DNA of 64,000 nucleotides from an uncultured delta proteobacterium (GCA_963767925.1 CAVYGB010000008.1:2368001-2432000), one strand, 5' to 3'; shown: positions 9,334 to 23,489, counted from the stretch's first letter. Numbers and translations: made by a program. The notes: a model not told the origin generated them from the letters alone.

Positions 9334-10272
9334 GTGAAGCGTCGCCAGTTCCTTCGAAACACCGGTATCGCCGCCGCCTGCGCGGTGCTCGATGGGCCCG
9401 CCTTCGCCGCTGCCGGCCTGCGCGCGCGGCTTGGCGTCACCAGCGACGAGATCTCCAACGACCTCGAGGTGGCGTTGCGCCTCTTGCAGTCGTTCGGGCT
9501 CGGCTGGGTCGAGCTGCGGAAGGTTTGGGGGCAAAACGTCACCGAGCTCTCGCTCGAAGACTGCAAGCGCGCCCGCGCCCTGATGGACCGCTACAAGGTG
9601 CGCCTGTCCGTCCTCGACACGGCCATGTACAAGTGCGACCTGCCCGGCCTGCCGAGCGGCCGCAAGGAAGACTACCCCTTCGACGGTCAGGACGCCGTTC
9701 TGGCCCGGGCCCTCGAGCGCGCCCCCATCCTCGGCACCCGCTTCATCCGGATCTTCAGCTTCTGGCGCCCCAGCGCGGCCGCGCTCGACGAGCCCGGCTT
9801 CAAGCGCGTCGTCGAGCACCTGAGCAAGGCCAGCGACAAGGCGCGCGCCGCCAAGGCGACCCTGCTGCTGGAGAACGTCAACGGCGCCAACGTCGAGACC
9901 AGCGTCGAGGCGGCCCGCCTGCTGGCCGCCATCCCCTCGCCGGCGTTCGGCCTGGCCTGGGATCCCAACAACGCCTACTGCGGCAAGGAGACCCCCTTCC
10001 CCGACGGCTACCGCGCCCTCGACCGCAAACGGATCCACCACATCCACCTGCGCGACGCCGGCTGGGACCCCGAGACAAAGAAGTGCAAGTGGCTGCCCGT
10101 CGGCAAGGGCCAGGTCGACAACCTCGGGCTGCTGCGCGCCCTCGCCAAGGACCGGTTCCCCGGCACCCTCACCCTCGAAACCCACTACGCCCGCCCCGAC
10201 GGCAACAAGGAGCTCGCCACCCGCGAGTCCCTGCAGGGCCTGCTCCCCCTCTTCGACCGCGCGACAACCTGA
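9334..10272 (+). CDS. Tat-exported sugar-phosphate isomerase/epimerase (xylose isomerase-like TIM barrel)
   Basis: KRRQFL Tat motif; LLLEN, WDPNN, HIHLRD, LTLETH metal ligands. Confidence 0.9.
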   Translation: MKRRQFLRNTGIAAACAVLDGPAFAAAGLRARLGVTSDEISNDLEVALRLLQSFGLGWVELRKVWGQNVTELSLEDCKRARALMDRYKVRLSVLDTAMYKCDLPGLPSGRKEDYPFDGQDAVLARALERAPILGTRFIRIFSFWRPSAAALDEPGFKRVVEHLSKASDKARAAKATLLLENVNGANVETSVEAARLLAAIPSPAFGLAWDPNNAYCGKETPFPDGYRALDRKRIHHIHLRDAGWDPETKKCKWLPVGKGQVDNLGLLRALAKDRFPGTLTLETHYARPDGNKELATRESLQGLLPLFDRATT

Positions 10273-10873: not shown

Positions 10874-11059
10874 CGATCGCCTTTCCCCCTCCTGCCCAGC
10901 GCCCGAACTGTGGCCAGGCACAGGAGGCCCCACCGCTCACACCAGGGATCCGGCATTCTCGAGGCGGGACGGCAATCGCCAGCGCACCACCCACAGCCGC
11001 TGCCGACGGAGGCGCACGCAGCATGCCAGCCTGTAACGGCTTCAGATCCGAGTAGGTTT

Positions 11060-11091
11060 GTAGCGGGGGCCCGCTACTTCCGTTTTCAAAT
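11060..11091. repeat. Distal att junction of the island
   Basis: GTAGCGGG-GG-CCCGCTAC perfect 8-bp inverted repeat, followed by T-N6-TTCAAAT. Confidence 0.75.
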
Positions 11092-11273
11092 ACCTACCGG
11101 CTGGCGCTGGCACCAGGGTTCGGGCTGGGGCTGGATGAGGGTTGTGGACCCGTCGCGGGGTAGAATCGAGTGCGGTCGGGTTCAGACCACCCTCGTCGTG
11201 TCGATGGGTTTGCGTTCCTGCCCCCGCCAATCTCGCAAGCCAACCAAGCTGGCTAATGACCGAGAGGTGTTAA

Positions 11274-11370
11274 AAGGCACTCCAGCGGTTCGTCTCGACG
11301 ACAAACGCCATCGAGAACCTGATGGGCGTCGTGCGGACGGTCACCCGCATCGAGAAGCGCCTCTATTCGT
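11274..11370 (+). pseudogene. IS256 (Mutator) family transposase fragment
   Basis: KALQRFVSTTNAIENLMGVVRTVTRIEKR resembles the IS256 TTN-x-IE catalytic-Glu helix; preceded by an in-frame stop. Confidence 0.6.
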
Positions 11371-11699
11371 GCTATCTTTTGCGACGCCGGGCAATCCCAG
11401 GGGCCGCTCGAAGCGCTGGATCTATCGCCCTGATGCGCGCAGTTGCGGGTATCCTCAGCTCCGGGCACACCCTCGCGGCTGGCCAGCCAAGCTTCCGCCG
11501 CAATGAAGCCTGCGCCGGGAAGCGGACCCTCGTCAGCCTTGCCCTGCTCAACCAGGCGCCGCGTGCCCACACGCTTCAGCGTGGAGGCCACTCGTGATCT
11601 CAGCAGCCGCAGCGTTCGGCGGACTGACGCGCGCGCGGGCACGGCCTGCCCCGAATCGACCGCATCTTTGAAGATCTGGCAGAGCCGCAACTGCAGGCT

Positions 11700-11945
11700 C
11701 CCCCCGCTGCTGCCGATGACCAGCTGCCGACCGGCACTTCGGAATCCTCGCACGTTGCCGGGACGTTCGCCCACGAGCGGGAGCCACGAAAGGCCTGTCA
11801 GCCCGCCTGCTGGTCGCGACCAGGGCTCGCGCCACCATCTCCTTTCCAGTGCCGGTCTCGCCACGGATGAGCACGGGAACGTCGGACCCCGCCACGCCGC
11901 GCGCGAGCTGGCGGACCTGCGCGACGACGGGCTCCTCTTCCGATC
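11700..11945 (-). pseudogene. Degenerate sigma-54 activator (AAA+) remnant
   Basis: VAGSDVPVLIRGETGTGKEMVARAL..SRRADRPFV followed almost directly, in another frame, by PGNVR; GAFTGA and Walker B are missing. Confidence 0.7.
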
Positions 11946-11965
11946 CGGAACGCAAGAACCGCGGT

Positions 11966-12427
11966 TCAGGGCGAGGAGACCAACTCCCAGGAAGCTCCCG
12001 CGAGGCGGTAGACGCTGCCTTCGGCGGGAACCCGTCGTTCGATCGAGCCGTCGGGCTTGATGGTCCAGGACTCGTCCCAGCGCTCGTCACGATCGAGGTC
12101 GACCTTGAGGCGATTCCAGCGCCGGCCGTCGTCGCTATAAACGTTGATCTTGTAAGGCCTGCCGCGCGTTCCGTCCTTGATCTTGGGCTCGACAGGGCGC
12201 TCGAGCAGCGCCAGCGCGGCGCGGTCGATCTCGCGCATGCCCGGCCCAGGTTGAAGCGGCGCAGACGGGGCTCCGGTCGCCGGTGGGCGTGCCGGGGAGG
12301 CCCTCGGCGCGGCGACGGGAGGCGGCGATAGGGTGCCGGCGCATTTGATGGCGCCGAACATGCCGAGGAGGCCACCGCAGCTGAAAACAACGACCAGGAC
12401 GATGTTGCGAAAGGTGCGGTACTTCAT
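11966..12427 (-). CDS. Membrane-anchored hypothetical protein, 153 aa
   Basis: ATG overlaps the upstream stop (ATGA); N-terminal TM helix, Pro-rich linker, KVDLDRDERWDESW motif. Confidence 0.8.
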   Translation of the reverse strand: MKYRTFRNIVLVVVFSCGGLLGMFGAIKCAGTLSPPPVAAPRASPARPPATGAPSAPLQPGPGMREIDRAALALLERPVEPKIKDGTRGRPYKINVYSDDGRRWNRLKVDLDRDERWDESWTIKPDGSIERRVPAEGSVYRLAGASWELVSSP

Positions 12428-13320
12428 GAGGTGGCCTTTGGTCGCTCCCGAGGCATCATGCCCCGCTCGATGGGGACGGTGCAGTTGCAGTATTGGTAGC
12501 GACACGGCGTGGGCTCGTCGCGAAGGGAAAAAGTCCCCTCGAGCAGGTTCCCGAGAGACTCCCGGCGGTACCGGCGCGCGGGGTAGCACCGGAAGGCGTT
12601 GCCGAGGTCGTCGAGGATGAAATAACGAGCGCCCGCCCAGCAGGGCCGACCGGAGAAGTCGGGGGCGATCTCGCCGGTCGAGTTGTGCCCACCCAGGGCG
12701 AGGATCTGCGCGCGCTCGCCGGGGGTGTAGGCGATGACCTCTCGATCCTGCTTCTCCGGTTGGATCTTGAAGCGAATGCCCGCCGACGCAAAGCGGTCCC
12801 GGAGATCCCCGAGGCGCGGGAGGTTGGCACGGGTCGCCACGCAGGTCACACAGAGCGACGCCGGCGGTCGGGCGCGCTTGGTGATGGTGCGGCAGCGTTC
12901 GATGAAGTCCTCGAGCGTGTCGGGTTTGCCGCCGACGCCGGTGGCGTCCACGTATTCGAGGTGTAGTGAACAGCTCATCACGCCGAGGTGGTCTCCGGCG
13001 GCGTCGAGGAACGCGAGCAGCTTTTTCCGCGAAGCCGACAAGTTCGTCACCATGGATATCAGGAAACCCAGGCCACGCAGGCCCCGCACCAGCTCCAGCA
13101 GTTGGGGGTGCAGGAAGGGTTCTCCCCCGGAGAGCTTCACCTCCCACGCCCCGGGTAGGGCGGCGAAAGCACGCAGGAACCGGGGGACGTCGCGCGCCCA
13201 GCGCCCGCGGTCGTCGACGAAACGTTGGGTGCAGTAGCTGCAGCGGTAGTTGCAGGTGGTGTTCATGTTCCAGCTGATGACCCCGCGCGGGGGGGCGGGG
13301 GTGGGAAGGAAGGGGCTCAT
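12424..13320 (-). CDS. Radical SAM protein with C-terminal Cys-rich auxiliary domain, 298 aa
   Basis: CNYRCSYC, SGGEPF, CWAGARYFILDDLGNAFRC, CRYQYCNC. Confidence 0.92.
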   Translation of the reverse strand: MSPFLPTPAPPRGVISWNMNTTCNYRCSYCTQRFVDDRGRWARDVPRFLRAFAALPGAWEVKLSGGEPFLHPQLLELVRGLRGLGFLISMVTNLSASRKKLLAFLDAAGDHLGVMSCSLHLEYVDATGVGGKPDTLEDFIERCRTITKRARPPASLCVTCVATRANLPRLGDLRDRFASAGIRFKIQPEKQDREVIAYTPGERAQILALGGHNSTGEIAPDFSGRPCWAGARYFILDDLGNAFRCYPARRYRRESLGNLLEGTFSLRDEPTPCRYQYCNCTVPIERGMMPRERPKATS

Positions 13321-14267
13321 TGGCTCGGCCCTGCCTCGGCCGCCCGGGCCGGCACACCCTCGATCATCCCGCGGTTGGCCGGCACACTGCAGGGGCAGAT
13401 GGTGTAGGGGCACCGCACCGGACCCGGGCGCAGAACCACGCTGCCTTGGTGGACGTTGCCGAGGTAACCTTCGTCTTCGCGTTTGGCCGATCGGCACGAC
13501 CAAGCGTCGCCGTTTTGCATGAGGACGAAGTAACGGGCGCCGGTCCAGCAGCGCCGGCCGGTGTAGGCGGGTGCGAGATTGGCGCTGCGCGACTCCTCGG
13601 CGAGCGCAAGCCCGCCGACGATTTCCTCGATGAGCGCCAGCTGCGCCAGGTTGTAGGCGACGACGCCGTGTTTGACCTTCATGAGCTGGGGAAAAAAGCG
13701 GAAGCCCGCGGCCTCGACCGCGCGCTTCGCGGCTCGGGCCTCCGCAAGGCGACTGGGCACCAGCACGCTGTTGACCACGAAGCGGGCGGTGGCATCGGAG
13801 GCCTGCCGCAGGGCCGACAGCCGCTGCAGGAAATCCGCCACCGCGGTGAACTCGAGGTGCAGGCTCGCCGAAACGATGCCGAGCCGGCCCAGGGTAAGAG
13901 CACCGAAACGTCGCAACACCGAGACCGGCGGCGACAGATTGGTCAGCAGCGAGATCCGATGCGGCAGCGCCAGCAGCCCTGGAACGATCCGGCGCAGGAA
14001 GAGCGGCGAGGCGAAGGGCTCGCCGCCGGTCATCTTGATCTCCCAGCTCCCCGGTAGGGCGCCGAGGAAGGCGATCATGCGATCGATCTGCTCGGCCGAT
14101 GGGAAGCCGACACGACGGTCGCGCGCCTGGATGCAATAGCTGCAATCGTAGTTGCAAACCCCGCACACCTGCCACTCGACGGTCGGCTGGTGCGGCCAGG
14201 GAGGTTCGGCCGGTCCCGGTTCCGCGGAGCTCGTGCCCAACCTTCCAACGATGGGTAAGTGTCTCAA
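13317..14267 (-). CDS. Radical SAM protein, paralog of the downstream gene, 316 aa
   Basis: CNYDCSYC, TGGEPF, CWTGARYFVLMQNGDAWSC, CPYTICPC. Confidence 0.92.
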   Translation of the reverse strand: MRHLPIVGRLGTSSAEPGPAEPPWPHQPTVEWQVCGVCNYDCSYCIQARDRRVGFPSAEQIDRMIAFLGALPGSWEIKMTGGEPFASPLFLRRIVPGLLALPHRISLLTNLSPPVSVLRRFGALTLGRLGIVSASLHLEFTAVADFLQRLSALRQASDATARFVVNSVLVPSRLAEARAAKRAVEAAGFRFFPQLMKVKHGVVAYNLAQLALIEEIVGGLALAEESRSANLAPAYTGRRCWTGARYFVLMQNGDAWSCRSAKREDEGYLGNVHQGSVVLRPGPVRCPYTICPCSVPANRGMIEGVPARAAEAGPSQ

Positions 14268-15394
14268 CCGAGCACCCTCAACCGTTTAGGGATAGCCGCC
14301 ACCTCCCCCGGACGCACCGGGCGGGGCGCCTCGCCGAACGCCGCGCGGAAGGCAGCGCCCAGCTTGACGTTCTCGTTCAGCTTTCCGCACTGCCAGCAAC
14401 CCGGGAAGAAGCCACCGGCGGCAAGCCGCGACCGCAAGCTCTCCCAGGCCTCACCTCGCCAGAGGGCGGAGAAACCAGCGGGCCGCTCGAGTCTTCCCAC
14501 CACCACCTCGGTGTTGCAGCAGAACAGGACGGTACCGTCGACGGTGATGCGGCTATATTCGTACCCCAGAAAACATCCGACGTCTTCGATGGGCGCGGTG
14601 GTCTCGCCGCCCGCCTCCACCTGCGCGCGGAAGACGTCCAGGTTGTGTTTCACCCCCAGGGCAAGGGCCTTAACGCGGGCCGCTTCGATCCCCTCGCCCA
14701 GCAACCAATGCCGCTGTGGCTCGCTGATGCGGGCAGCCTCGGTGCCGGCGCGCAAGGAAGCGAGCTTGAAGTTTACCTGGAGGGCCCGATAGCGAGCGGC
14801 CAGCGCGATCATGTCGGGCAGCTGACCGGCATTACAGGCGGCGATGACCTGGACCTGTTTGTAGCGGCGTCCGGCGTCTCGCAGCTGGCCCAGCATCCGG
14901 TGCAGCTTGTCCCAGTGGGCCGGGCCGAACGACGGGTGGAAGGCCAGGTAGGCTTCCGCGCTGGCACCGTGAACGCCAATGAGAAGTTGATCCACGCGCA
15001 GGGCCAGGAGCCGCTCGAGATCCGCGGCGACGAGGTTGGTGATGATCGTGAGATGCAGGCCGCGACCTTTGACGTCGGCGATCAGCTCATAGACGTGAGG
15101 ATGGGTGAACGGCTCGCCCATGCCCGACAGGATCACCGCCTCGAGGCCGCCCAACCCCTGGATGTCGTCGAGCAGCGCGTGCACGAACGCGGTGTCTACC
15201 CGCTGCCGTTTCCACGCCGCTGGTCTCGCCGCGGCCAGCAGGGGACTGTGGTCCCAGCAGGTGATGCAGTCGGTGTTGCAACTGTTCGTGATGTCGATGT
15301 GCACCGTGCGAGGTCCCAGGCGGACGATCCCGTCCCGGAGGCTCTCCAGGCGTTGCCGCGACGGCGAGGGAACAGCGCCGGTGCGCCGGTTCAC
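14264..15394 (-). CDS. Radical SAM protein with SPASM/twitch-like domain, 376 aa
   Basis: CNTDCITC, SGMGEPF, CFLGYEYSRITVDGTVLFCC...CWQC; GTGA overlap with upstream gene. Confidence 0.92.
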   Translation of the reverse strand: MNRRTGAVPSPSRQRLESLRDGIVRLGPRTVHIDITNSCNTDCITCWDHSPLLAAARPAAWKRQRVDTAFVHALLDDIQGLGGLEAVILSGMGEPFTHPHVYELIADVKGRGLHLTIITNLVAADLERLLALRVDQLLIGVHGASAEAYLAFHPSFGPAHWDKLHRMLGQLRDAGRRYKQVQVIAACNAGQLPDMIALAARYRALQVNFKLASLRAGTEAARISEPQRHWLLGEGIEAARVKALALGVKHNLDVFRAQVEAGGETTAPIEDVGCFLGYEYSRITVDGTVLFCCNTEVVVGRLERPAGFSALWRGEAWESLRSRLAAGGFFPGCWQCGKLNENVKLGAAFRAAFGEAPRPVRPGEVAAIPKRLRVLG

Positions 15395-17061
15395 GATGGC
15401 CCCCCCACACTCTGCAGCCGCACCCGCGCGCGTTCGAGGAGCAGCCGGTTTGGTTGCTCCCCGTCGGGCTCGGCCTGAAGGCGGGTCACCTCCTGGACGA
15501 CCCGGAACAGATCGAGCCCCACCGCGGCGCTGACATCCATGACCGTGACGATCTGCTCTGCGGCGCGCGCCGGGGCGACCTCCCGCTCGGTGCGGAGGCG
15601 CTCGACCAGCGAGACCAGGGCGCTCCACTGCCCGTGCGCCGCCGGGTGCGCCAGCAGCGCGGCAGCGGCCTCGCCGATCTCGTCCGGCCCCACCTGAGGC
15701 GCGCAGAGCTTGCGGCCGAGCAGCGTCGCGAGCCGCACGGCCAGTTTCTGAGGCATACCCACCTCCCGGGCCGCCCGCAAGAGGGTGCGGGCAGGCTGGA
15801 GGTCGAGCGCGGCCCGGTCCACCGTCCGCGGATTTCCCAGCAGGCCCACCGCCGCATCTACCAGATGGCCCAGCTCAACGCCCAGCGCCTGCGCCTCCGC
15901 GAGCAACTGGTCGTCGACGATGGCCGCTGCCTGACGCACCACACTGGTGGGTAGCACCAGCTCCAGCAGCTCGGCCGCTGCGTCGCGAGCATGGTTGCGT
16001 GGCACCCTCCGTAGGCCGGCCTCCCGCAAGCCCGCCGCCGTGCTCGGATCGCGGAGAGCGGCCACCGTCGCGGCCAGCGTCGATGGCTCGACGGCGCGCA
16101 GATCCAGCGCCGCCCCCGCGCCCACCATGGCCGCCACCCGGCCGTACTGGTCGTCGGCGATCTTGGTCTGGGCGAAAAATGCGGTGGGAACGCCGAAGTG
16201 CAGGAGCTCGTGGGTGGCGTTGAAACCGGCCGCGGAGATCGCACCGTCCACGCCGGGGAGCACCTCTGCCAGGCGCGTCTCCGTCCAGAATGTGATGCGC
16301 GGACCTCGGCGGGGCTCACCGCGATAGAGCGGCCCGGCCGCGAGCAGCAGATGGATGGTGGGATCGTGGGCCACGGCGGCCACCACGGCGTCGAGGAGGG
16401 CGGCGACCGTCTGGTCGCCGCCGCCGCCCCCGGAGACCAGCAGGCAAAAGGCGTCCTCCGGAACACCGATGCGGGCCCGCGCGGCCCCGCGGGACAGGGC
16501 CTCGAAGCGCTCGGTGAGCATGACCGGACCGACCGCGCGAATCTGATCGCGCCGCACCTCGGCAGGCGGCTCGGCGGGATCGCCATCCGCACCGGGAACG
16601 ATCACCCGATCGTAAAGCGTCACCAGGGCGCGGTAGGCCGGCCGATCCGCGAGCTCCTGGCGAACCCTGCGCGCGACCAGCGCCTTGTGCCGGCAGAGGT
16701 CCAGCACCCCCAGCAGCTCGTCGAACGACCCGTTGGGGAATGTGTCCACCACGAGCAGATCGGGGCGGAGCAGCGCCACCGCGCTCCAGACCCACTGCTT
16801 GGCCAGGGCCAGGTAAGAGGCCTTGGGGATGCCGGCCTCTTCGACGATGGACTTGCTCGGCAGCTTGAAGGAGGCGAAACCCTCGTGGAAAAGCAGCGTG
16901 TCCGCCTCGGAGGTGGTGAGGAACCAGTGCTGGGTGGTGACCCCGGCAAAGGTGGCATAACGCCTCAACCAGCGGTTGATGGCCGCCAGCCGGCAGACGT
17001 GCCCGAGCCCACGGCCGTTCACCGCGTAGTTGACCAGGACGAGCGAGCGCGGCAGTTCCAT
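15391..17061 (-). CDS. GT-B glycosyltransferase (MurG/GT28-C-like) with helical C-terminal extension
   Basis: NGRGLGHVCR, PDLLVVD, VSGGGGG, ISAAGFNATHELL, DDQYGR. Confidence 0.88.
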   Translation of the reverse strand: MELPRSLVLVNYAVNGRGLGHVCRLAAINRWLRRYATFAGVTTQHWFLTTSEADTLLFHEGFASFKLPSKSIVEEAGIPKASYLALAKQWVWSAVALLRPDLLVVDTFPNGSFDELLGVLDLCRHKALVARRVRQELADRPAYRALVTLYDRVIVPGADGDPAEPPAEVRRDQIRAVGPVMLTERFEALSRGAARARIGVPEDAFCLLVSGGGGGDQTVAALLDAVVAAVAHDPTIHLLLAAGPLYRGEPRRGPRITFWTETRLAEVLPGVDGAISAAGFNATHELLHFGVPTAFFAQTKIADDQYGRVAAMVGAGAALDLRAVEPSTLAATVAALRDPSTAAGLREAGLRRVPRNHARDAAAELLELVLPTSVVRQAAAIVDDQLLAEAQALGVELGHLVDAAVGLLGNPRTVDRAALDLQPARTLLRAAREVGMPQKLAVRLATLLGRKLCAPQVGPDEIGEAAAALLAHPAAHGQWSALVSLVERLRTEREVAPARAAEQIVTVMDVSAAVGLDLFRVVQEVTRLQAEPDGEQPNRLLLERARVRLQSVGGPS

Positions 17062-17063
17062 GG

Positions 17064-18344
17064 TCAGCTCGCGTCCATGCTGGAAAAATCGTCCCGGCTC
17101 CCCTGGGCGGTGGCTATCGCGCCGGCAGCTACTTCTCGGTCACGTATCGCATGAGCCGTGCGGTGTTCTGCCACCTCGGGGATGAAGTTTCCTTTAACGC
17201 GCCCGCCGGTCATGAGATCCCACCAGAGATAGTCTCGCGACGGTTCACACACTTGATACGCGTCGAACCCCACCACCGACTGGCAGGCCTGCTGGTAACG
17301 GGCGCGGCGGTCGTCCCAGCGCACGAGCGGCAGAGAGTACTTTGCCCTCACCTCTCGCTCGTCGTACGAGGCGTTGCACTTCCTGGCACTGGCGGTCAGC
17401 TTCTCCTCGGTGCGCGCCAGCTTCTCGAGCATACGTGTGACTTCGGCGCGTGGGCGGCGGATCCATTCTTCCCCAATGGCTGCGAGGTAGCGGGTCTTGG
17501 CCTGCACACCCGCCACCCGCTTGGCCGCCAGCGACAGGGCCGGGTCGTCGCTGAAAACCCCTAGAAAGTCCTGTTCCGGAAGGGCGTCGAGATGATCGCG
17601 CGCTCGACCGCGGGCGGTGGCGAGCGACCAGGGCTCGGTGCTGGCAAGCGCGGTTCCGGCCTCCTCGTACCGGCGGGCGAGCGCTTCGATCTGTCCGGCC
17701 TGATTGATCAGGTCGCCACGCTCGGTATTCAAGGCCTCGAGGGCCTCGCCCTCTCGCAGGTAACCCGCGCGAATCTGCCCGAAGTCCATCGCCCGCAGGC
17801 GCGGACCGTGTCGCTCCAGAATGAGGTCGCCGTGTTTCCAGTGGCGATAATACGAGGACTCCCACCACATTCGGGTGTACCCCTCGACCCCGTATTTCTC
17901 CGCGATCAGCTCGGCGAAGAACGGCTCGCCTTCCAGCAGCGAGCGGCTGGTCGCCAGGGCCGTGATATGCTCCGCTAGATCGTGGGCGCGGATGGAGATG
18001 CGGTTGAGCGCCGCGGCGCGGGTCACGAACCGCTGGTCGACTTCGATGGACGCCCGGGTGATCTCCAGCTGCGCCTTACGTTCTCCGGCACGCTTCGCCA
18101 CCTCGCCCGGAGCCAGGGTCGGGAGGGACAGCCGGGAGGCGGCCGCGCTCAGGGCCGCGGGGTCGAGGTTCGGCAAGAGCAGTCCGAGGAGGTGTTGCCA
18201 GGCACCGTCGAGCGCGGCTCGCACCTCCTGCTCGGTACGCTCGTGCTCCACGCGCGTGGCATCGAGACGGTGAAGCTCCGCTTCGGCCACGGCACGTTGT
18301 CTCCGGGCGAGCTCGCGCAGCTCCTGGCCGGAAAGGCTGCTCAC
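17064..18344 (-). CDS. Hypothetical coiled-coil-rich protein, 426 aa
   Basis: GTG overlaps the upstream TGA; long heptad-like helices with aromatic islands WWESSYYRHWKHGD and YLWWDLMTGG. Confidence 0.8.
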   Translation of the reverse strand: MSSLSGQELRELARRQRAVAEAELHRLDATRVEHERTEQEVRAALDGAWQHLLGLLLPNLDPAALSAAASRLSLPTLAPGEVAKRAGERKAQLEITRASIEVDQRFVTRAAALNRISIRAHDLAEHITALATSRSLLEGEPFFAELIAEKYGVEGYTRMWWESSYYRHWKHGDLILERHGPRLRAMDFGQIRAGYLREGEALEALNTERGDLINQAGQIEALARRYEEAGTALASTEPWSLATARGRARDHLDALPEQDFLGVFSDDPALSLAAKRVAGVQAKTRYLAAIGEEWIRRPRAEVTRMLEKLARTEEKLTASARKCNASYDEREVRAKYSLPLVRWDDRRARYQQACQSVVGFDAYQVCEPSRDYLWWDLMTGGRVKGNFIPEVAEHRTAHAIRDREVAAGAIATAQGSRDDFSSMDAS

Positions 18345-18700
18345 GGCCCGCCGCCTCCCGGGCGGGCGCCCGAACACCTGCGGGCGACCTCGTCGAGGAA
18401 GGCCTCCGCCGCGGCCGCCAGATCCTCGGCGGAGGTCGCGGCGGTTTCATCCACCACGAAGATGTACAGGTCGCCCGCGGCGATGCGCCGGCCAAGCTCT
18501 GCTCGCGCTATCGCAGTGAGCTCGGCGTGATCACCGGCAAGGTGGGTGAGGTATTCGTATCCCACCCGCGCGACGGGGTCCCATCCGTCCGCCGTGAAGT
18601 CGAGCCTGCCCTCCCGGAAGGGGACGTTTTCCTGGATCGAATAGCCACGCCCGGCGAAAGCCCGTTTCAGGACGGCGCATCCTTCCGCTTCGCTCAGCAT
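18341..18700 (-). CDS. Small hypothetical protein, possible restriction-endonuclease-like fold
   Basis: 119 aa; ENVPF..LDFTADGWDPVARVGYEY pattern. Confidence 0.7.
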   Translation of the reverse strand: MLSEAEGCAVLKRAFAGRGYSIQENVPFREGRLDFTADGWDPVARVGYEYLTHLAGDHAELTAIARAELGRRIAAGDLYIFVVDETAATSAEDLAAAAEAFLDEVARRCSGARPGGGGP

Positions 18701-19107
18701 GATGGGCCCGATAGGCTGCCCCGGACTTCGTCCTTAAACCCATTTCTGACGAACGCCCGATCGAGGTGACCGAGCACCGCCAGGGCGGCTGGCCCGGACA
18801 GAGGTGCCGACCACTCCGATCGGTAGACGATGAGGCGGCTCATGTCTATCGTGGAGACCATGATCGAACCGCCTTGACCGCCGGCCCCCACTTCCACGTC
18901 GGCGAGACAGGCGTGGGCGCGGGCCACGTCGTCGTCGCGAGCAGAGCGTTTCAACCAGGTCCGGCACACCTCGCGGGCCTGGTCGAATCGACGTAGCTGA
19001 ACCAGCTGGGAGGAAAGCCGCGAAAGCTCCGCCGGCCCCGTTGGGGCGGCAGGCGCTTCAGCCTGCGAGAGCAGCGATCCCAACAGGATGGAGGGCAGCA
19101 AGATCAT
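18694..19107 (-). CDS. Secreted TPR-like protein, probably truncated
   Basis: Signal-like MILLPSILLGSLLSQA, TPR-like helices (RRFDQAREVC, AHACLADV). Confidence 0.45.
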   Translation of the reverse strand: MILLPSILLGSLLSQAEAPAAPTGPAELSRLSSQLVQLRRFDQAREVCRTWLKRSARDDDVARAHACLADVEVGAGGQGGSIMVSTIDMSRLIVYRSEWSAPLSGPAALAVLGHLDRAFVRNGFKDEVRGSLSGPSC

Positions 19108-19179
19108 GGATGATCTGCCCTTTCGGCAGTTCACTCGGGGATCTGAACGGGCTGCAGCCGCCCTCCACCGATGGTCGGA

Positions 19180-19771
19180 TCAGAGCTTGAGGAGGGCTTC
19201 CCGGGCCACCGCTCCGATGGTCGATTTCTTCGATTTGGGTAGATCGGAGTCGTACAGCATGCAGGGGGTCTCGTCGGAGGTGAACCGGGCGATCTGCTCG
19301 CGCTGCTCGACCACCCTCATGCGCCCGAGCGCCCTCCTCAACTTCAGTCGCCACAGCCGAACCGGAACAAGGTCAAGTACTCCGCACCTGGCGGCTACCG
19401 CCGCCGGCGTTCCGGTGGCCAGCGCAGGCGACCCCACGAAGGCACCACCATCTCCACCTCCGGGGCGTTGTAGGTTCGCTCCACCATCTGGCCATCGTCG
19501 TCGAGGTGCGGACCGTCCTTTGGCCGCCCGCAACCGGTACGCTGAGGCACAGCAACGGCACGGGCTCGCGGCGTTCACGACGATGAGACGTCTCGTAGCG
19601 GACGGGCATCCAGGTGCCGTCCTTCATGGCGAGATCGAGCCCGGTCCCGCAGCGCACGGGCCGGCCGTCGAGGTGGTGGCGATACCCGCCCGTGCTGCAG
19701 TTGTGCCAGAACTCCAGATTCCCCGAGCGGTTAAGGAACTAACCGCATTCGTCGGCGTAGTCGTCGATCAT
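19180..19771 (-). pseudogene. Disrupted gene with DUF5348-like N-terminal domain
   Basis: MIDDYADECG*FLNRSGNLEFWHNCSTGGYRHHLDGRPVRCGTGLDLAMKDGTWMPVRYE: in-frame TAG and later frameshifts. Confidence 0.45.
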
Positions 19772-19887
19772 CGGTGAATTCCGCCACTTCTCTGGGCGCG
19801 ATGAGCATGACGCGATGGCTTTAGCGACTGCGCCTCCCTTCACGCCTGATGGCGGCAATGGGGTCGTGCGGGCCCTATAAAGGTCTG

Positions 19888-20136
19888 ATGGCAAATGCCG
19901 ACGTGGACGAGCTGCTCGCGGCGATTCGCCGTCTCCCGCTTGACGAGCGCCTGCGACTCTTGGACCGCGCCAGTCGCGAAGCCGCTCGCGATGCGCCGAG
20001 ACCGGTGTCGGTCCGTACCAACCTAGCGTCTGCTCTTCTCGGGTTGCTGGCAGACGAACCCGAGCTAGTCGATCAGATGTGCCTCCTGGCCTATCGGTCG
20101 CGCGACGGAGTGCGGATGCGGTCGGTTGATGAGTAG
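19888..20136 (+). CDS. Putative antitoxin (VapB-like)
   Basis: 82 aa, DELLAAIRRLPLDERLRLL; overlaps the PIN gene start. Confidence 0.7.
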   Translation: MANADVDELLAAIRRLPLDERLRLLDRASREAARDAPRPVSVRTNLASALLGLLADEPELVDQMCLLAYRSRDGVRMRSVDE

Positions 20137-20552
20137 GCGGTTGTTGGATACGGACATCCTCTCCGAAATCCTCAAGGGAAGGAACGTCTCGGTTTACGGC
20201 ACGAGCAACGGCGTATCTGGCGGAGCATGGCAGGTTCACCACGTCGGCGGTGACGGTCGCGGAGGTCGTCTACGGATTCCGTCGGGTGGGTCGGGAGGAC
20301 CGTGTGACCCAGTTCGAAACGTCTGCGGACGCATCCGAGGTACTCCCCTTCGATGACCAGGCTGCCCGGCTCGCCGGGCGAATCAATGCCGATCTGGAAC
20401 GCCTCGGCCGCGTCATCGGAATGCCTGACGTCATGGTTGCCGCGATCGCCCTGCGAAACGGTCTCCCGATCGTCACCGGAAACGTCGTGCACTTCGAATA
20501 CGTCATGGCCGCGGGGTACCCGCTGGCTATCGAGAACTGGAAAAATACCTGA
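20129..20552 (+). CDS. vapC: PIN-domain VapC toxin (frameshift near 20190)
   Basis: LLDTDILSE, TVAEVVYG, VLPFDD, DVMVAAIAL, IVTGNVVHF. Confidence 0.85.
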
Positions 20553-21017
20553 CCCTCGGTCCGGGCGTCCCTCGAGGGGAGGACAATCCCCGCAGCAGTG
20601 GCTCCCTCGGGCTGAGCGCGCCCAGTCTGCCGCACTCGCTCACGCCCGCGGCTTCTGTCGCCGGTCCTCGTCGGCGGATCAACCGGCGCACCCGACGTTC
20701 GGAGCCGCGGCATCAGCGACCTGGCCCGGCGACGGTCGCCGGTGAGGTCGGGAGGCGAGATGGGCAAGACCGTGGTCAGGTGTCGAACAACCGGAAGCCG
20801 CAGCGGTGTTGTCCACGGACGACGGGGCAGCATCGGTGCAAGGGGTGCAGTCGTCACCGGGTCAGGTGGACCAGCGGGCCTGCCAGCCGGGGGCGAAAGC
20901 GTCCTCGCCGATCGACCGTTCCGCACGCGGGCGTCCCAGACTGACAGTAGCGGGGTCAGTCAAAGGCGCACGCGGGGTCGCCAACTTCTTGGCGTGACCC
21001 TGATTTGAACGGATGAG

Positions 21018-21091
<74 letters not shown>

Positions 21092-21173
21092 TCAAGGATT
21101 TCAGTCGACTAGGTTAGGCTCTCGCCGGCGGCCGGGATTTTTAGGGGCCCGGAAGTCTTCGAAAGGGACGGAG

Positions 21174-21202
21174 AAACTGCCCCATCGGATGTGCCACGTC
21201 AA
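21174..21202 (-). promoter_or_regulatory. Candidate sigma70 promoter for the tRNA
   Basis: TTGACG-17 bp-CAGTTT about 80 bp upstream of the tRNA. Confidence 0.5.
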
Positions 21203-21409
21203 GTGCGATCGGCAGAGAGGGTGGGGATTGGCATTTCTTGGACGGAGGGAGGGACGTCGGGGAGGGGTCGCGGGGAGGCCCTTCGTGCGCGGGCGACTGC
21301 GGGAGTGAGCTCGGTACGAAGTCCGCTCGGCCAGGCAATGGCCCGCCTGTTCGCGGTCGATTCGAGCGCGGGCACAGACTGGCGCTTGTCGCAGCGGACG
21401 ATCGGGCGA

Positions 21410-21567
21410 GGTTCTCTGGTGTCAGGCACGAGTCTCGGCTGCCGTCTGTCGGCCTCGTGGCGGTTCGCTGGAATCGGGTACGGGTCCCGGGCTGTCGTCG
21501 GTCGGCGTCGTGGCGGTTCGCTGGTGTCGGGTCCGAGTCGCCGGCCGTTGGTCTGCATCGACGGCTC
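21410..21567. repeat. Degenerate tandem repeat, about 3 x 52-53 bp
   Basis: GGTTC[T/G]CTGG starts at 21410, 21462 and 21515 with similar downstream sequence. Confidence 0.65.
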
Positions 21568-22171
21568 GTGCGGCCGTCCGGGGCGTCGGTAGATGGCAGG
21601 TATCGATCCGCGTGGACAGGACCGAAAGATCGCGCGTGGGGGAATGTCGGATGGCGGCTGCCGTCTCCTTGTCGGCGCATGCGGCCTCAGCGATTGAGAT
21701 GCTGCTGCGGTCGCCGGTGTGTCAGCCGGTCGATCTCTTCCCCCTCATCACCTTCCGCCCGCCGCGACCAACCCGCTCGCAGCCACCGTGCCAGCGCGCC
21801 CGTGCGCGGACTCCCGGTGCGAGGGGACAGTAATGCCCGGGAGCACGCTTGTACGCACCGGAGCGCGCGTAGGGGGCGCTGAGGGCGCGCTCGGGCGCAT
21901 CCACGTGACAGCGGCTCTGCGGGGCGCTCGGCGCGCGCGACGATCGAGCGTGGGGGTCCCTCTAACTCGACGCATTGAGACCTCCGGCGGGGCCTGCGGG
22001 GTTTTATGTCGAATGTGTAACGTCGTGGGTTCTGTGGAGGGGGAGTTGGAGTAATCTGGACTACGAGGGGTTTGGCGTCGCTGTGCGACGTCCGGCGCTG
22101 TCGGGGTCGGCCGGGCGAGGGGGAAAGCGCCGAGGGCGGGGCGATTTCCGCGTCTTTCCGGGAGGAAAGAG

Positions 22172-22990
22172 ATGATCGCTGAAGGAGGCTGGGCAAATCC
22201 GAGGCCCCGCAGGCGGCTGGGGGTGATCGTCATCCTGGCGGTGGCGGCGCTTGGCGCGACGGTGGCTTATGCCACCTTCTTCGAGCCCCAGCGGATCGAG
22301 ACGACCCGCCACAATTTCGTCGGCAACGTCCAGCGGCCGCTCCGGATCGTCCACCTCAGCGACCTGCACATGCGCGGGATGGGGGCGCGCGAGCGCGGCC
22401 TCATCCTCCTCGTGCGCAAGGAGAACCCGGATCTTATCGTCATCACGGGCGACACGACCAACGGCGACAGCCTCGAGCCGGCGCGCGACTTCCTCCTCAA
22501 TCTCTCGGCGCCGCTGGGGGTCTGGGTCGTGCGCGGGGACGCCGAGCGCTGGACGGACCAGGACCGGGAGCGGCCGCTGTACGCCCAGGCCGGGGTGCAC
22601 TTCCTCCAGAACCGGGGGGCGGCGGCGCGCGACGACCTATGGCTGGCAGGGCTCGACGATCCGGTGACCGGCACGCCCGACCTGGACTCCGCGCTGCAGG
22701 GCGCGCCCACCGGGTCGTTCAAGGTGGTGCTCATGCACGCGCCCGATCACTTCCCGCGCATCGCCGGGCGCTTCGACCTGGCGCTGGCCGGGCACAGCCA
22801 CGGGGGCCAGATCGTCCTGCCCGGCTACGGCCCGGTGCTGTTGCCCGCGGGCGGGCGGCGTTACGTGCGGGGCTGGTTCACCCAGAACCGCAGCCACCTG
22901 TTCGTCAACCGCGGGGTAGGGACGGGGCCGACGCCGGGGCGGCTGTTCGCGCGCCCCGAGCTGGCGATCATCGACGTGCGGCCGGGCTGA
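22172..22990 (+). CDS. Metallophosphoesterase (YkuE-like), membrane-anchored
   Basis: HLSDLH, ITGD, LAGHSHGGQI, VNRGVG. Confidence 0.9.
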   Translation: MIAEGGWANPRPRRRLGVIVILAVAALGATVAYATFFEPQRIETTRHNFVGNVQRPLRIVHLSDLHMRGMGARERGLILLVRKENPDLIVITGDTTNGDSLEPARDFLLNLSAPLGVWVVRGDAERWTDQDRERPLYAQAGVHFLQNRGAAARDDLWLAGLDDPVTGTPDLDSALQGAPTGSFKVVLMHAPDHFPRIAGRFDLALAGHSHGGQIVLPGYGPVLLPAGGRRYVRGWFTQNRSHLFVNRGVGTGPTPGRLFARPELAIIDVRPG

Positions 22991-23012
22991 GCCCGCGGCC
23001 GCGGCCGGGCCA

Positions 23013-23489
23013 TCAGGCGGTGACGGGGGCAGCGGCGGCGGTGGCGGCGGCCGTCTTGTCGTACTTGTCGACGAGGCGGGAGATACGCGGCACGGCGGCC
23101 TCGACGTGTTTCTTGCCGGCCGGCCGGAGCTTCTCGTAGGCCGACTTGAGCACGGTGTTCTTCGTGCGCTGGGCCCGCTCGTCGGTGATGGCGAGCAGCG
23201 CCTCGGCCACCTCGCCGGTGCGGGCGTTGAAGTAGGCGGTCACCGGCTCGTTCTTGGTCTTGGCCTGCTGGTAGATCGGATCGAGCCGGCGCGCGAAGTC
23301 GTCGAGCAGGTGATCGACGATCTCGGGCACGAAGCCCGGCTTGACGGCCTTCACGATGGCGTAGGCGGCCTTGATCGGCACGCCGAGCAGTCCCTTGGAT
23401 CCGACCTCATCCTCGATGATGCGCTCGCTGTCGGCGACCACCTGGGTGCGGACCCCGGGAGCGCCGAGGATGTCATTGAGCGTGGGCAT
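23013..23489 (-). CDS. Conserved hypothetical helical protein
   Basis: 158 aa, strong codon bias, AEALLAITDERA, AYEKLRPAGKKHVEAAVPR. Confidence 0.8.
   Translation of the reverse strand: MPTLNDILGAPGVRTQVVADSERIIEDEVGSKGLLGVPIKAAYAIVKAVKPGFVPEIVDHLLDDFARRLDPIYQQAKTKNEPVTAYFNARTGEVAEALLAITDERAQRTKNTVLKSAYEKLRPAGKKHVEAAVPRISRLVDKYDKTAAATAAAAPVTA

Follow-up and report, generated by a model that had tools for sequence, protein, structure and literature searches.

Junctions of large serine recombinase type at an initiator tRNA gene bound a probable recombinase-less island in an uncultured delta proteobacterium

To trace the origin of a probable genomic island beside an initiator tRNA gene we analyzed one 64,000-nucleotide stretch of the genome of an uncultured delta proteobacterium, hereafter the window (G000:C8:2368001-2432000). 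The assembly to which it belongs comprises 9,336,993 bp with 71% GC in 13 contigs, and its completeness is estimated at 84% from markers. The sole tRNA gene of the window, tRNA-fMet or tRNA-Met(CAT) (21017-21091, minus strand), has the three G:C pairs (GGG/CCC) in the anticodon stem that are typical of initiators, and it is the only initiator-type gene among the 64 tRNAs detected by ARAGORN in the assembly. We propose, with a probability of about 0.68, that the region 11060-21027 is what remains of a mobile element that was inserted by a large serine recombinase (LSR) into the acceptor end of this tRNA gene and that has since lost its recombinase. Such an origin would explain why the only initiator tRNA gene has a toxin-antitoxin pair and a radical-SAM operon as neighbours, and would mark the 3' side of this gene as an insertion hotspot.

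The last 11 bases of the tRNA gene, GTAGCGGGGGC, are present in direct orientation at 11060-11070 (plus strand) and at 21017-21027, where the second copy is the 3' end of tRNA-fMet itself. The first copy begins a palindrome of 18 bp (11060-11077), made of two 8-bp halves around an asymmetric central GG, which we take as the core of an LSR-type junction. The element-side arm of the left junction (P', 11070-11091) is an imperfect inverted copy of the element-side arm of the right junction (P, 21003-21024), which supplies the present 3' trailer of the tRNA. Against the reverse complement of P, P' matches exactly over the inner 9 bases and the outer ATTTGAA/TTCAAAT, with a shift of 2 nt in the N6 blocks that separate these segments. 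Within the 20-bp core the asymmetry is confined to the central GG, and the identity to the target amounts to 11 bp. The sites therefore combine inverted arms of ~20-25 bp, a 2-bp asymmetric centre and a short identity to the target, as expected of the attachment sites of LSR elements. The left half of the left junction (B arm into the shared core, 11047-11069) is presumed to be the original chromosomal trailer of the tRNA; it differs from the tRNA-side arm, and in other genomes the terminator hairpins of tRNA trailers hold that position. An initial annotation of the window had described the 11-bp repeat, the nested inverted arms and the identity of the outer 7-mer with the T-loop of the tRNA (ATTTGAA, 21031-21037), and all three were confirmed, the arms with the 2-nt shift given above. 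A 9-mer containing ATTTGAA is directly repeated at 21002 and 21030.

By itself the 11-mer carries little weight. The two strands of the genome together contain 15 copies, of which the other 13 lie in unrelated GC-rich sequence, and for this reason a same-strand copy within 10 kb is only a ~1% event, or a coincidence of ~1-3%, before allowing for the annotator's freedom of choice. The pattern TTTGAA-N4-10-GTAGCGG has two matches genome-wide, which are the two island ends in inverted orientation, and the further copies of the arm motif that the initial annotation had suggested looking for were not found in the genome. The outer 14-nt arms gave a gapped score of 6, against a 99th percentile of 3 for a null distribution made of cross-pairs of unrelated flanks. 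A third, partial copy of the core, the 10 bases AGTAGCGGGG, lies between 7-nt inverted repeats at 20946-20955, 70 nt from the tRNA, and may be a relic of another integration event. A 10-mer common to 11010 and 20964 was considered as an extension of the direct repeat and rejected, about two such 10-mers being expected by chance, according to our own estimate, for regions of this size and composition.

To search public collections we used the unchanged 19 bases 11060-11078 as the query. Matches to this 19-mer came from two sources. One is a set of 46 metagenome contigs (42-69% GC) in which its flanks vary widely and the nearest 4 kb contain no tRNA; the other is seven reference genomes that carry the labels of different phyla and have, on the left of the 19-mer, terminator hairpins resembling those of tRNA trailers. 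The left flanks that are not genes mostly consist of a hairpin and a T-run and resemble the terminators that follow tRNA-fMet in the genomes of the family to which the window belongs, which is the look to be expected of a putative displaced tRNA trailer. Left and right flanks occur in differing combinations among contigs of the same habitat, as for recombination partners. Five of the 46 contigs contain a gene that ends inside the palindrome and encodes Resolvase and Recombinase domains, with a zinc-ribbon match in four of the five. These five LSRs fall into three clades that are 24-28% identical: L037, L040 and L051 (62-77% identical to one another), L043 (28% identical to these three) and L073 (24-26% identical to the other four). 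In the first two clades the palindrome encodes the tail MVAGARY*, and L073 crosses the palindrome in another frame. That one palindrome ends LSR genes of three clades elsewhere strengthens the serine-recombinase reading put forward in the initial annotation. Several other contigs have ~180 nt of the LSR 3' end alone at the palindrome, or an insertion-sequence-type transposase in place of the gene, which indicates that loss of the recombinase with a surviving junction occurs elsewhere.

The ends of the LSR proteins provide a link to the tRNA gene. A homologue search with the LSR of L043 retrieved 435 proteins at E<=1e-20, and the tails of the 120 listed homologues (P0001-P0120) were examined. 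Twenty-seven of the 120 end in G-x-G-[FI]-E-P-...-GL*, 13 of them with VAGAGFEPATFGL* and five with VAGAGFEPATSGL; 18 contain VAGAR[YF] within the last 60 residues, and the remaining 75 have other ends. Read in antisense from its last base, the tRNA gene of the window encodes VAGARFELATFGL*, with a stop codon that is the complement of the anticodon loop, and the palindrome of the window translates to VAGARY. The two tail types diverge exactly after the 11 shared bases. Judged from the peptide tails, the 27 ends are thus probably antisense read-through of a tRNA(CAU) gene. The match of the tails to the tRNA antisense and to the palindrome therefore suggests that the two types are two states of one LSR family, which would be integrated at tRNA(CAU) in one case and joined to a palindromic partner arm in the other. 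Because the LSR reading frame crosses the crossover point, the last residues of the enzyme would change on integration and differ between the free and the integrated states. Taken over both searches, the core of the window is used by bona fide LSRs elsewhere, in 5 of 46 contigs and in 27 + 18 of the 120 listed homologues.

Serine integrases bind each site as a dimer on inverted half-sites, cut the central dinucleotide and exchange the halves. One product then joins a chromosomal arm to an element arm and the other joins an element arm to the target, here the tRNA. In the series of events that we propose, the single initiator tRNA gene would have received an element at its acceptor-stem end through the action of an LSR. 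The attachment site of the element would have carried a copy of the last bases of the tRNA, so that the tRNA gene stayed whole, together with an inverted copy of the same bases, which would give two recombinase subunits symmetric binding positions on either side of a 2-bp crossover. Symmetry and the 11-bp identity would place this crossover at the GG at 21025-21026 and 11068-11069. Integration would leave a palindromic attL at 11060-11091 and attR at 21003-21027 on the tRNA, and the element would have supplied the last 9 bases of the tRNA and its present trailer. The LSR gene, which in related elements reads into the tRNA-side junction, would once have lain between the vapC gene (20133-20552) and the tRNA and would have been lost completely, so that the island would now be fixed. 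In the window this place, occupied in related elements by the 3' end of the LSR gene, is a stretch of ~450 bp without coding signal (20553-21002) that holds the partial core copy and a hairpin 17 nt from the tRNA end. What now lies inside may have been remodelled, or may represent no more than a part of the original element. As to the ~10-kb element inserted at the GG that the initial annotation had proposed, insertion by an LSR at the tRNA is supported, and the GG as the exact crossover and the present 10 kb as the original extent are tentative.

We then looked for a recombinase. Among the 90 open frames of 9-23 kb, scanned with Pfam, none has a Resolvase, Recombinase, Phage_integrase, rve or other transposase domain, and none of the 3 Resolvase and 32 Phage_integrase matches of the genome lies inside the window. 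A tblastn search of the window with eight LSR sequences (the genome's own and five metagenomic ones) returned nothing significant (best E=0.26), and with a profile of the LSR family the lowest E against the six-frame translation of the window was 12. The domain scan, tblastn and the family profile therefore agree with the earlier statement that there is no integrase, and the detection of neither a gene nor a remnant in the window fits the earlier claim that the element has lost its recombinase. The gene by which LSR elements are defined, an LSR gene with Resolvase, Recombinase and zinc-ribbon domains, was not found in the island. Since this defining component is missing, we class the island as a relic of a serine-integrase element and not as a functional member.

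The genome does contain two LSR genes, one intact (617 aa) and one split over two frames, with a mutual identity of 84-88%. Both run into the 3' end of a tRNA-Glu(CTC) gene, and each is accompanied by a 14-bp direct repeat of the tRNA end at the far side, 20.1 kb away in one island (C8:1941266-1961459, locus L027) and 8.65 kb away in the other (C9:173679-182417, locus L028). LSR islands of the geometry that we propose therefore exist at tRNA 3' ends in this organism. Like the island of the window, these islands (8.7 and 20 kb) lie 3' of a tRNA and have a direct repeat of the tRNA end at the far end, and the C9 island shares with it the inverted-repeat arms, in the form of a 14-nt inverted repeat around a 20-nt centre containing tRNA-derived bases. 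In contrast to the island of the window they have kept their LSR genes, their site sequences are unrelated to the fMet sites, and their LSR clade shares no more than 22-26% identity with the fMet-linked LSRs. Further genes of the C8 tRNA-Glu island encode a tyrosine integrase and a DUF6119 protein. A link between the arms of the window and the tRNA-Glu sites (GGATGA before the core in both) was dropped, the stretch at the Glu sites being the inverted tRNA-Glu end. The search of the genome for an LSR that the initial annotation had called for was thus positive for enzymes of the same layout and of another clade, and its suggestion that a recombinase is supplied in trans receives no support from these two, which sit at unlike sites.

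Several observations weigh against an origin of the island by LSR insertion. An empty site was not found, and no relative examined keeps the left flank adjoining the tRNA. Across the family synteny is conserved on the 5' side of the tRNA; the 3' side differs in every relative examined, mostly with a terminator directly after the tRNA, a break that for its part fits an insertion. In the one same-genus genome (~78% nucleotide identity, 870 contigs) synteny breaks already at 10270 and the contig ends 167 nt past the tRNA. The radical-SAM genes are 67-71% identical at the nucleotide level to those of the relative G003, about as diverged as core genes, so that the cargo need not be a recent import; great age of the cargo and a remodelled interior would both be compatible with this. 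The arm on the tRNA side does not code for protein, and the hairpin 17 nt from the tRNA comes after it, an arrangement much like the native trailers of relatives; loss of the LSR gene must therefore have been a complete and tidy deletion. No junction-skipping record appeared in three low-depth, contig-level sequencing runs (2-4x depth in the one holder). Of the sampled words 14% were present in one soil run, and 10889-11115 is covered by one contig without change; these data are too thin to bear on excision. In the LSR-linked metagenome contigs the outer arms are asymmetric, unlike those of the window, and the 18-mer palindrome is present in 0 of 400 other genomes of the class (1 of 401 with the genome of the window). 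As a plain local alignment, in a short-query BLAST of the tRNA end, the inverted arm scores 12 (E=32 genome-wide), like dozens of others, and the palindrome at 11060-11077 also matches the pattern of a terminator.

Composition also counts against this origin, the signal being weak. With a GC content of 0.678 the island lies at the 6.9th percentile of 9.9-kb windows, its tetranucleotide distance is exceeded by 14% of random windows, and the zone of low GC extends over ~8-32 kb with no step at the junctions. The compositional check suggested by the initial annotation therefore showed a mildly atypical region without an edge at either junction. GC is ~0.64-0.72 over 8-32 kb compared with 0.76 at 1-8 kb, with a second dip at 28.5-32 kb (0.667), and the variable region may be larger than the island. 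The initial annotation had also reasoned that its proposal would fail if relatives kept the 11-21 kb content in synteny with no empty site and if the motif were common genome-wide. By DNA the radical-SAM cluster has a match in 1 of 30 relatives (G003, L023:3916-10944), in an unrelated context with non-syntenic flanks, and the motif has two copies in the genome. Exact scans for the left arm in a collection of genome contigs, and for the right arm and the 19-mer in viral contigs, gave no matches. Relatives of two metagenomic LSRs were not found in the viral contigs, and in the phage and plasmid collections searched the fMet-linked LSRs had no close relative, with at most 34% identity.

It is also conceivable, although unlikely, that the island has kept its mobility as a cassette or satellite lacking a recombinase of its own and is moved by a tRNA-fMet-specific LSR encoded elsewhere, whether in a phage, in a co-resident element or in genome sequence missing from the assembly. 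In favour of this, neither junction is damaged, the inner arms are far more symmetric than in the LSR-linked contigs, and the assembly is estimated to be only 84% complete. Other core-bounded islands without a recombinase were observed: a Solirubrobacterales genome (G401) has the palindrome and no PF07508 (Recombinase-domain) match anywhere, and a Bacteroidetes genome (G403) has a ~20-kb island between such cores without a recombinase. In the latter genome (C100:67783-88472 and C59:53629-84992) several paired copies of the tRNA-fMet end, ~130-170 nt apart, bound ~20-kb stretches without recombinase genes, and one copy is a decayed tRNA 3' half. In a metagenome contig from the same bacterial family as the window (L055, 67% GC), a palindrome of this core type is perfect over 46 bp (1794-1839), and no LSR lies within 1.8 kb of it. 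On the left of the palindrome the flank matches 250 nt of the tRNA-fMet trailer of the relative G004 with 91% identity. On the right, however, the contig leads to a gene conserved in the family genomes G004, G001 and G009, so that the palindrome may not bound a mobile unit and L055 is ambiguous as an attP example.

Other results argue against a cassette that is still mobile. An fMet-type LSR was not found in the 13 contigs of the assembly, where the fMet-linked LSRs match only the two tRNA-Glu enzymes, at 22-26% identity and with unlike sites. The fMet-linked LSR P0012 matched 0 of 76 family genomes at E<=1e-30, an empty result of little weight in the absence of a positive control. The sequencing data, too thin to tell, showed no excised form, and the island contains decayed genes (a sigma-54 activator fragment and a VapC apparently without a usable start). 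More broadly, we regard it as doubtful that the window and L055 belong to a class of recombinase-less cassettes with near-perfect symmetric sites that are shuttled in trans by tRNA-fMet-specific LSRs. If true, such a class would constitute an integron-like or satellite-like cargo system based on serine recombinases and a universally conserved target.

A further explanation accepts the junctions as genuine recombinase scars and holds that the interior is largely ordinary chromosome brought there by later rearrangement, in which case a 10-kb element is the wrong unit; we judge this improbable. It would account for the weak compositional signal, with uniformly lower GC over ~8-32 kb and no edge at the junctions, and for a radical-SAM cluster that differs from G003 about as much as core genes do. 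More than one event is hinted at by the third, partial core (20946-20955), and L055 joins a palindrome of this type to a conserved chromosomal gene. On the other hand, the junctions are in direct orientation with the arms arranged as expected of one integration, the cluster was detected in only one of the 30 relatives and there between non-syntenic flanks, and a toxin-antitoxin pair with gene debris is typical island content.

Much less probable is that there is no island at all, the hairpin at 11060-11077 being the terminator of an acetyltransferase gene that matches the tRNA by chance, beside a native tRNA trailer. As a plus-strand intrinsic terminator the palindrome has 7 pairs, a loop of 4 and the T-rich tail TTCCGTTTTC, and it passes a terminator scan; the 11-mer alone could be a coincidence of ~1-3%, the local alignment score is unexceptional and the trailer hairpin is like those of relatives. 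The hit in the scan means little, however, because 9 sites were found against 5.8±2.5 in shuffled sequences. The left junction may double as a terminator, but a terminator leaves unexplained the matching arm at the tRNA, in a combined pattern unique to two sites in 9.3 Mb, and the recurrence of an identical 19-mer across phyla with LSR genes ending in the palindrome.

An equally slight probability attaches to a tyrosine integrase or transposase as the inserting enzyme, in which case the 11-bp repeat would be a core identity or a target duplication. The 3' ends of tRNA genes are the classic targets of tyrosine integrases, whose cores are also inverted repeats around a spacer, and the genome has 32 Phage_integrase matches; nevertheless no Phage_integrase-family gene adjoins the tRNA, no transposase lies between the repeats, no Phage_integrase, rve or other transposase domain was found in 10-22.7 kb, the recombinases that end in this core elsewhere are all LSRs, and the presence of only 2 asymmetric central bases would fit serine rather than tyrosine recombinases, given their known mechanisms.

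As an LSR island the layout is ordinary in kind and its target, the initiator tRNA, is unusual. In LSR elements and prophages of the phiC31, Bxb1, A118/LI and SPbeta SprA type the attachment sites are ~46 bp long. The sites of the window resemble them in this short length, their imperfect inverted arms, asymmetric central dinucleotide and short identity between partner sites, and the position of the recombinase gene adjoining attP in phiC31-type elements is the same in the related contigs and in the tRNA-Glu islands. In contrast to phiC31-type elements, the target here is the initiator tRNA gene and not a protein-coding gene, the LSR frame of the related elements runs through the crossover, and the copy in the window has no recombinase. 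Loss of the integration and excision genes with retention of the junction repeats is also what decayed ('grounded') prophages and tRNA islands show. Those decayed islands mostly go with tyrosine integrases and have longer repeats, whereas the scars described here are of the serine-recombinase type. A limited search of the literature, which is not proof of absence, found no description of a serine recombinase that uses tRNA-fMet. A report on the phiRSM filamentous phages of Ralstonia describes a small serine recombinase of the resolvase/invertase type that integrates at the 3' 13 bp of a tRNA-Ser gene (PMC4471427). As described there, phiRSM is similar in the use of a tRNA gene end as attB by a serine recombinase and in the short identity of ~13 bp, and different in that the enzyme is of the small resolvase type and not an LSR, that another tRNA is used and that the recombinase is present and active (PMC4471427).

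On the sequence evidence, several divergent LSR clades in bacteria of several phyla appear to share one 20-bp palindromic core derived from the acceptor end of the initiator tRNA. The main value of the window lies in this cross-phylum LSR family, which was reached via the junction, more than in the stranded copy itself. Recombinases aimed at a sequence that is present in nearly all bacteria could interest builders of integration tools.

The contents between the junctions were mapped for 11-21 kb from GC-frame analysis together with the family scans. Behind the left junction, 11092-11968 has no clear coding frame and holds a gene remnant, a fragment of 53 residues of the AAA+ domain of a sigma-54 activator (11778-11934, minus strand). 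Next to it lies an operon that runs on the minus strand from 18733 to 11969. Its first gene, an open frame without a family match (18344-18733), is also the first gene of the cluster common with G003 (41% identity), and it is followed by a second protein without a family match (17067-18377) that is kept in the G003 cluster with 32% identity. A glycosyltransferase-like protein (15394-17061) has weak family matches below the curated cut-offs. Family matches identify the next three genes as a radical SAM/SPASM protein with an uncertain start (14267-15628), a radical SAM protein (13320-14285) and another radical SAM protein with an approximate start (12427-13300). The last gene encodes a small membrane-anchored protein (11969-12440) with a KINVYSDDG...DLDRDE(K/R)WDE domain, which is doubled in the corresponding cluster of G003.

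On the plus strand a VapB-like open frame without a family match (19849-20136) lies directly upstream of the PIN-domain gene vapC (20133-20552), which was identified by the family scan. The NCBIfam models nearest to this VapC are those of the tRNA(fMet)-specific endonuclease VapC, at a score below the cut-off (64 vs 140 bits). The first usual start codon of the gene is at 20250, inside the PIN domain, and there seems to be no start before the first PIN motif; for this reason the gene may be decayed.

Beyond the tRNA, at its 5' side, ~1.9 kb of sequence (21092-23060) with a thioredoxin-like frame and a metallophosphoesterase gene separate the tRNA from a gene that sits ~175 nt from it in other genomes of the family, and the same-genus genome shares this stretch from 22046 on. 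Among the relatives, one (G005, L019) has the tRNA-fMet gene inverted relative to its conserved neighbour, and another (G009, L014) has 13 bases of the tRNA end repeated ~790 nt downstream of the gene.

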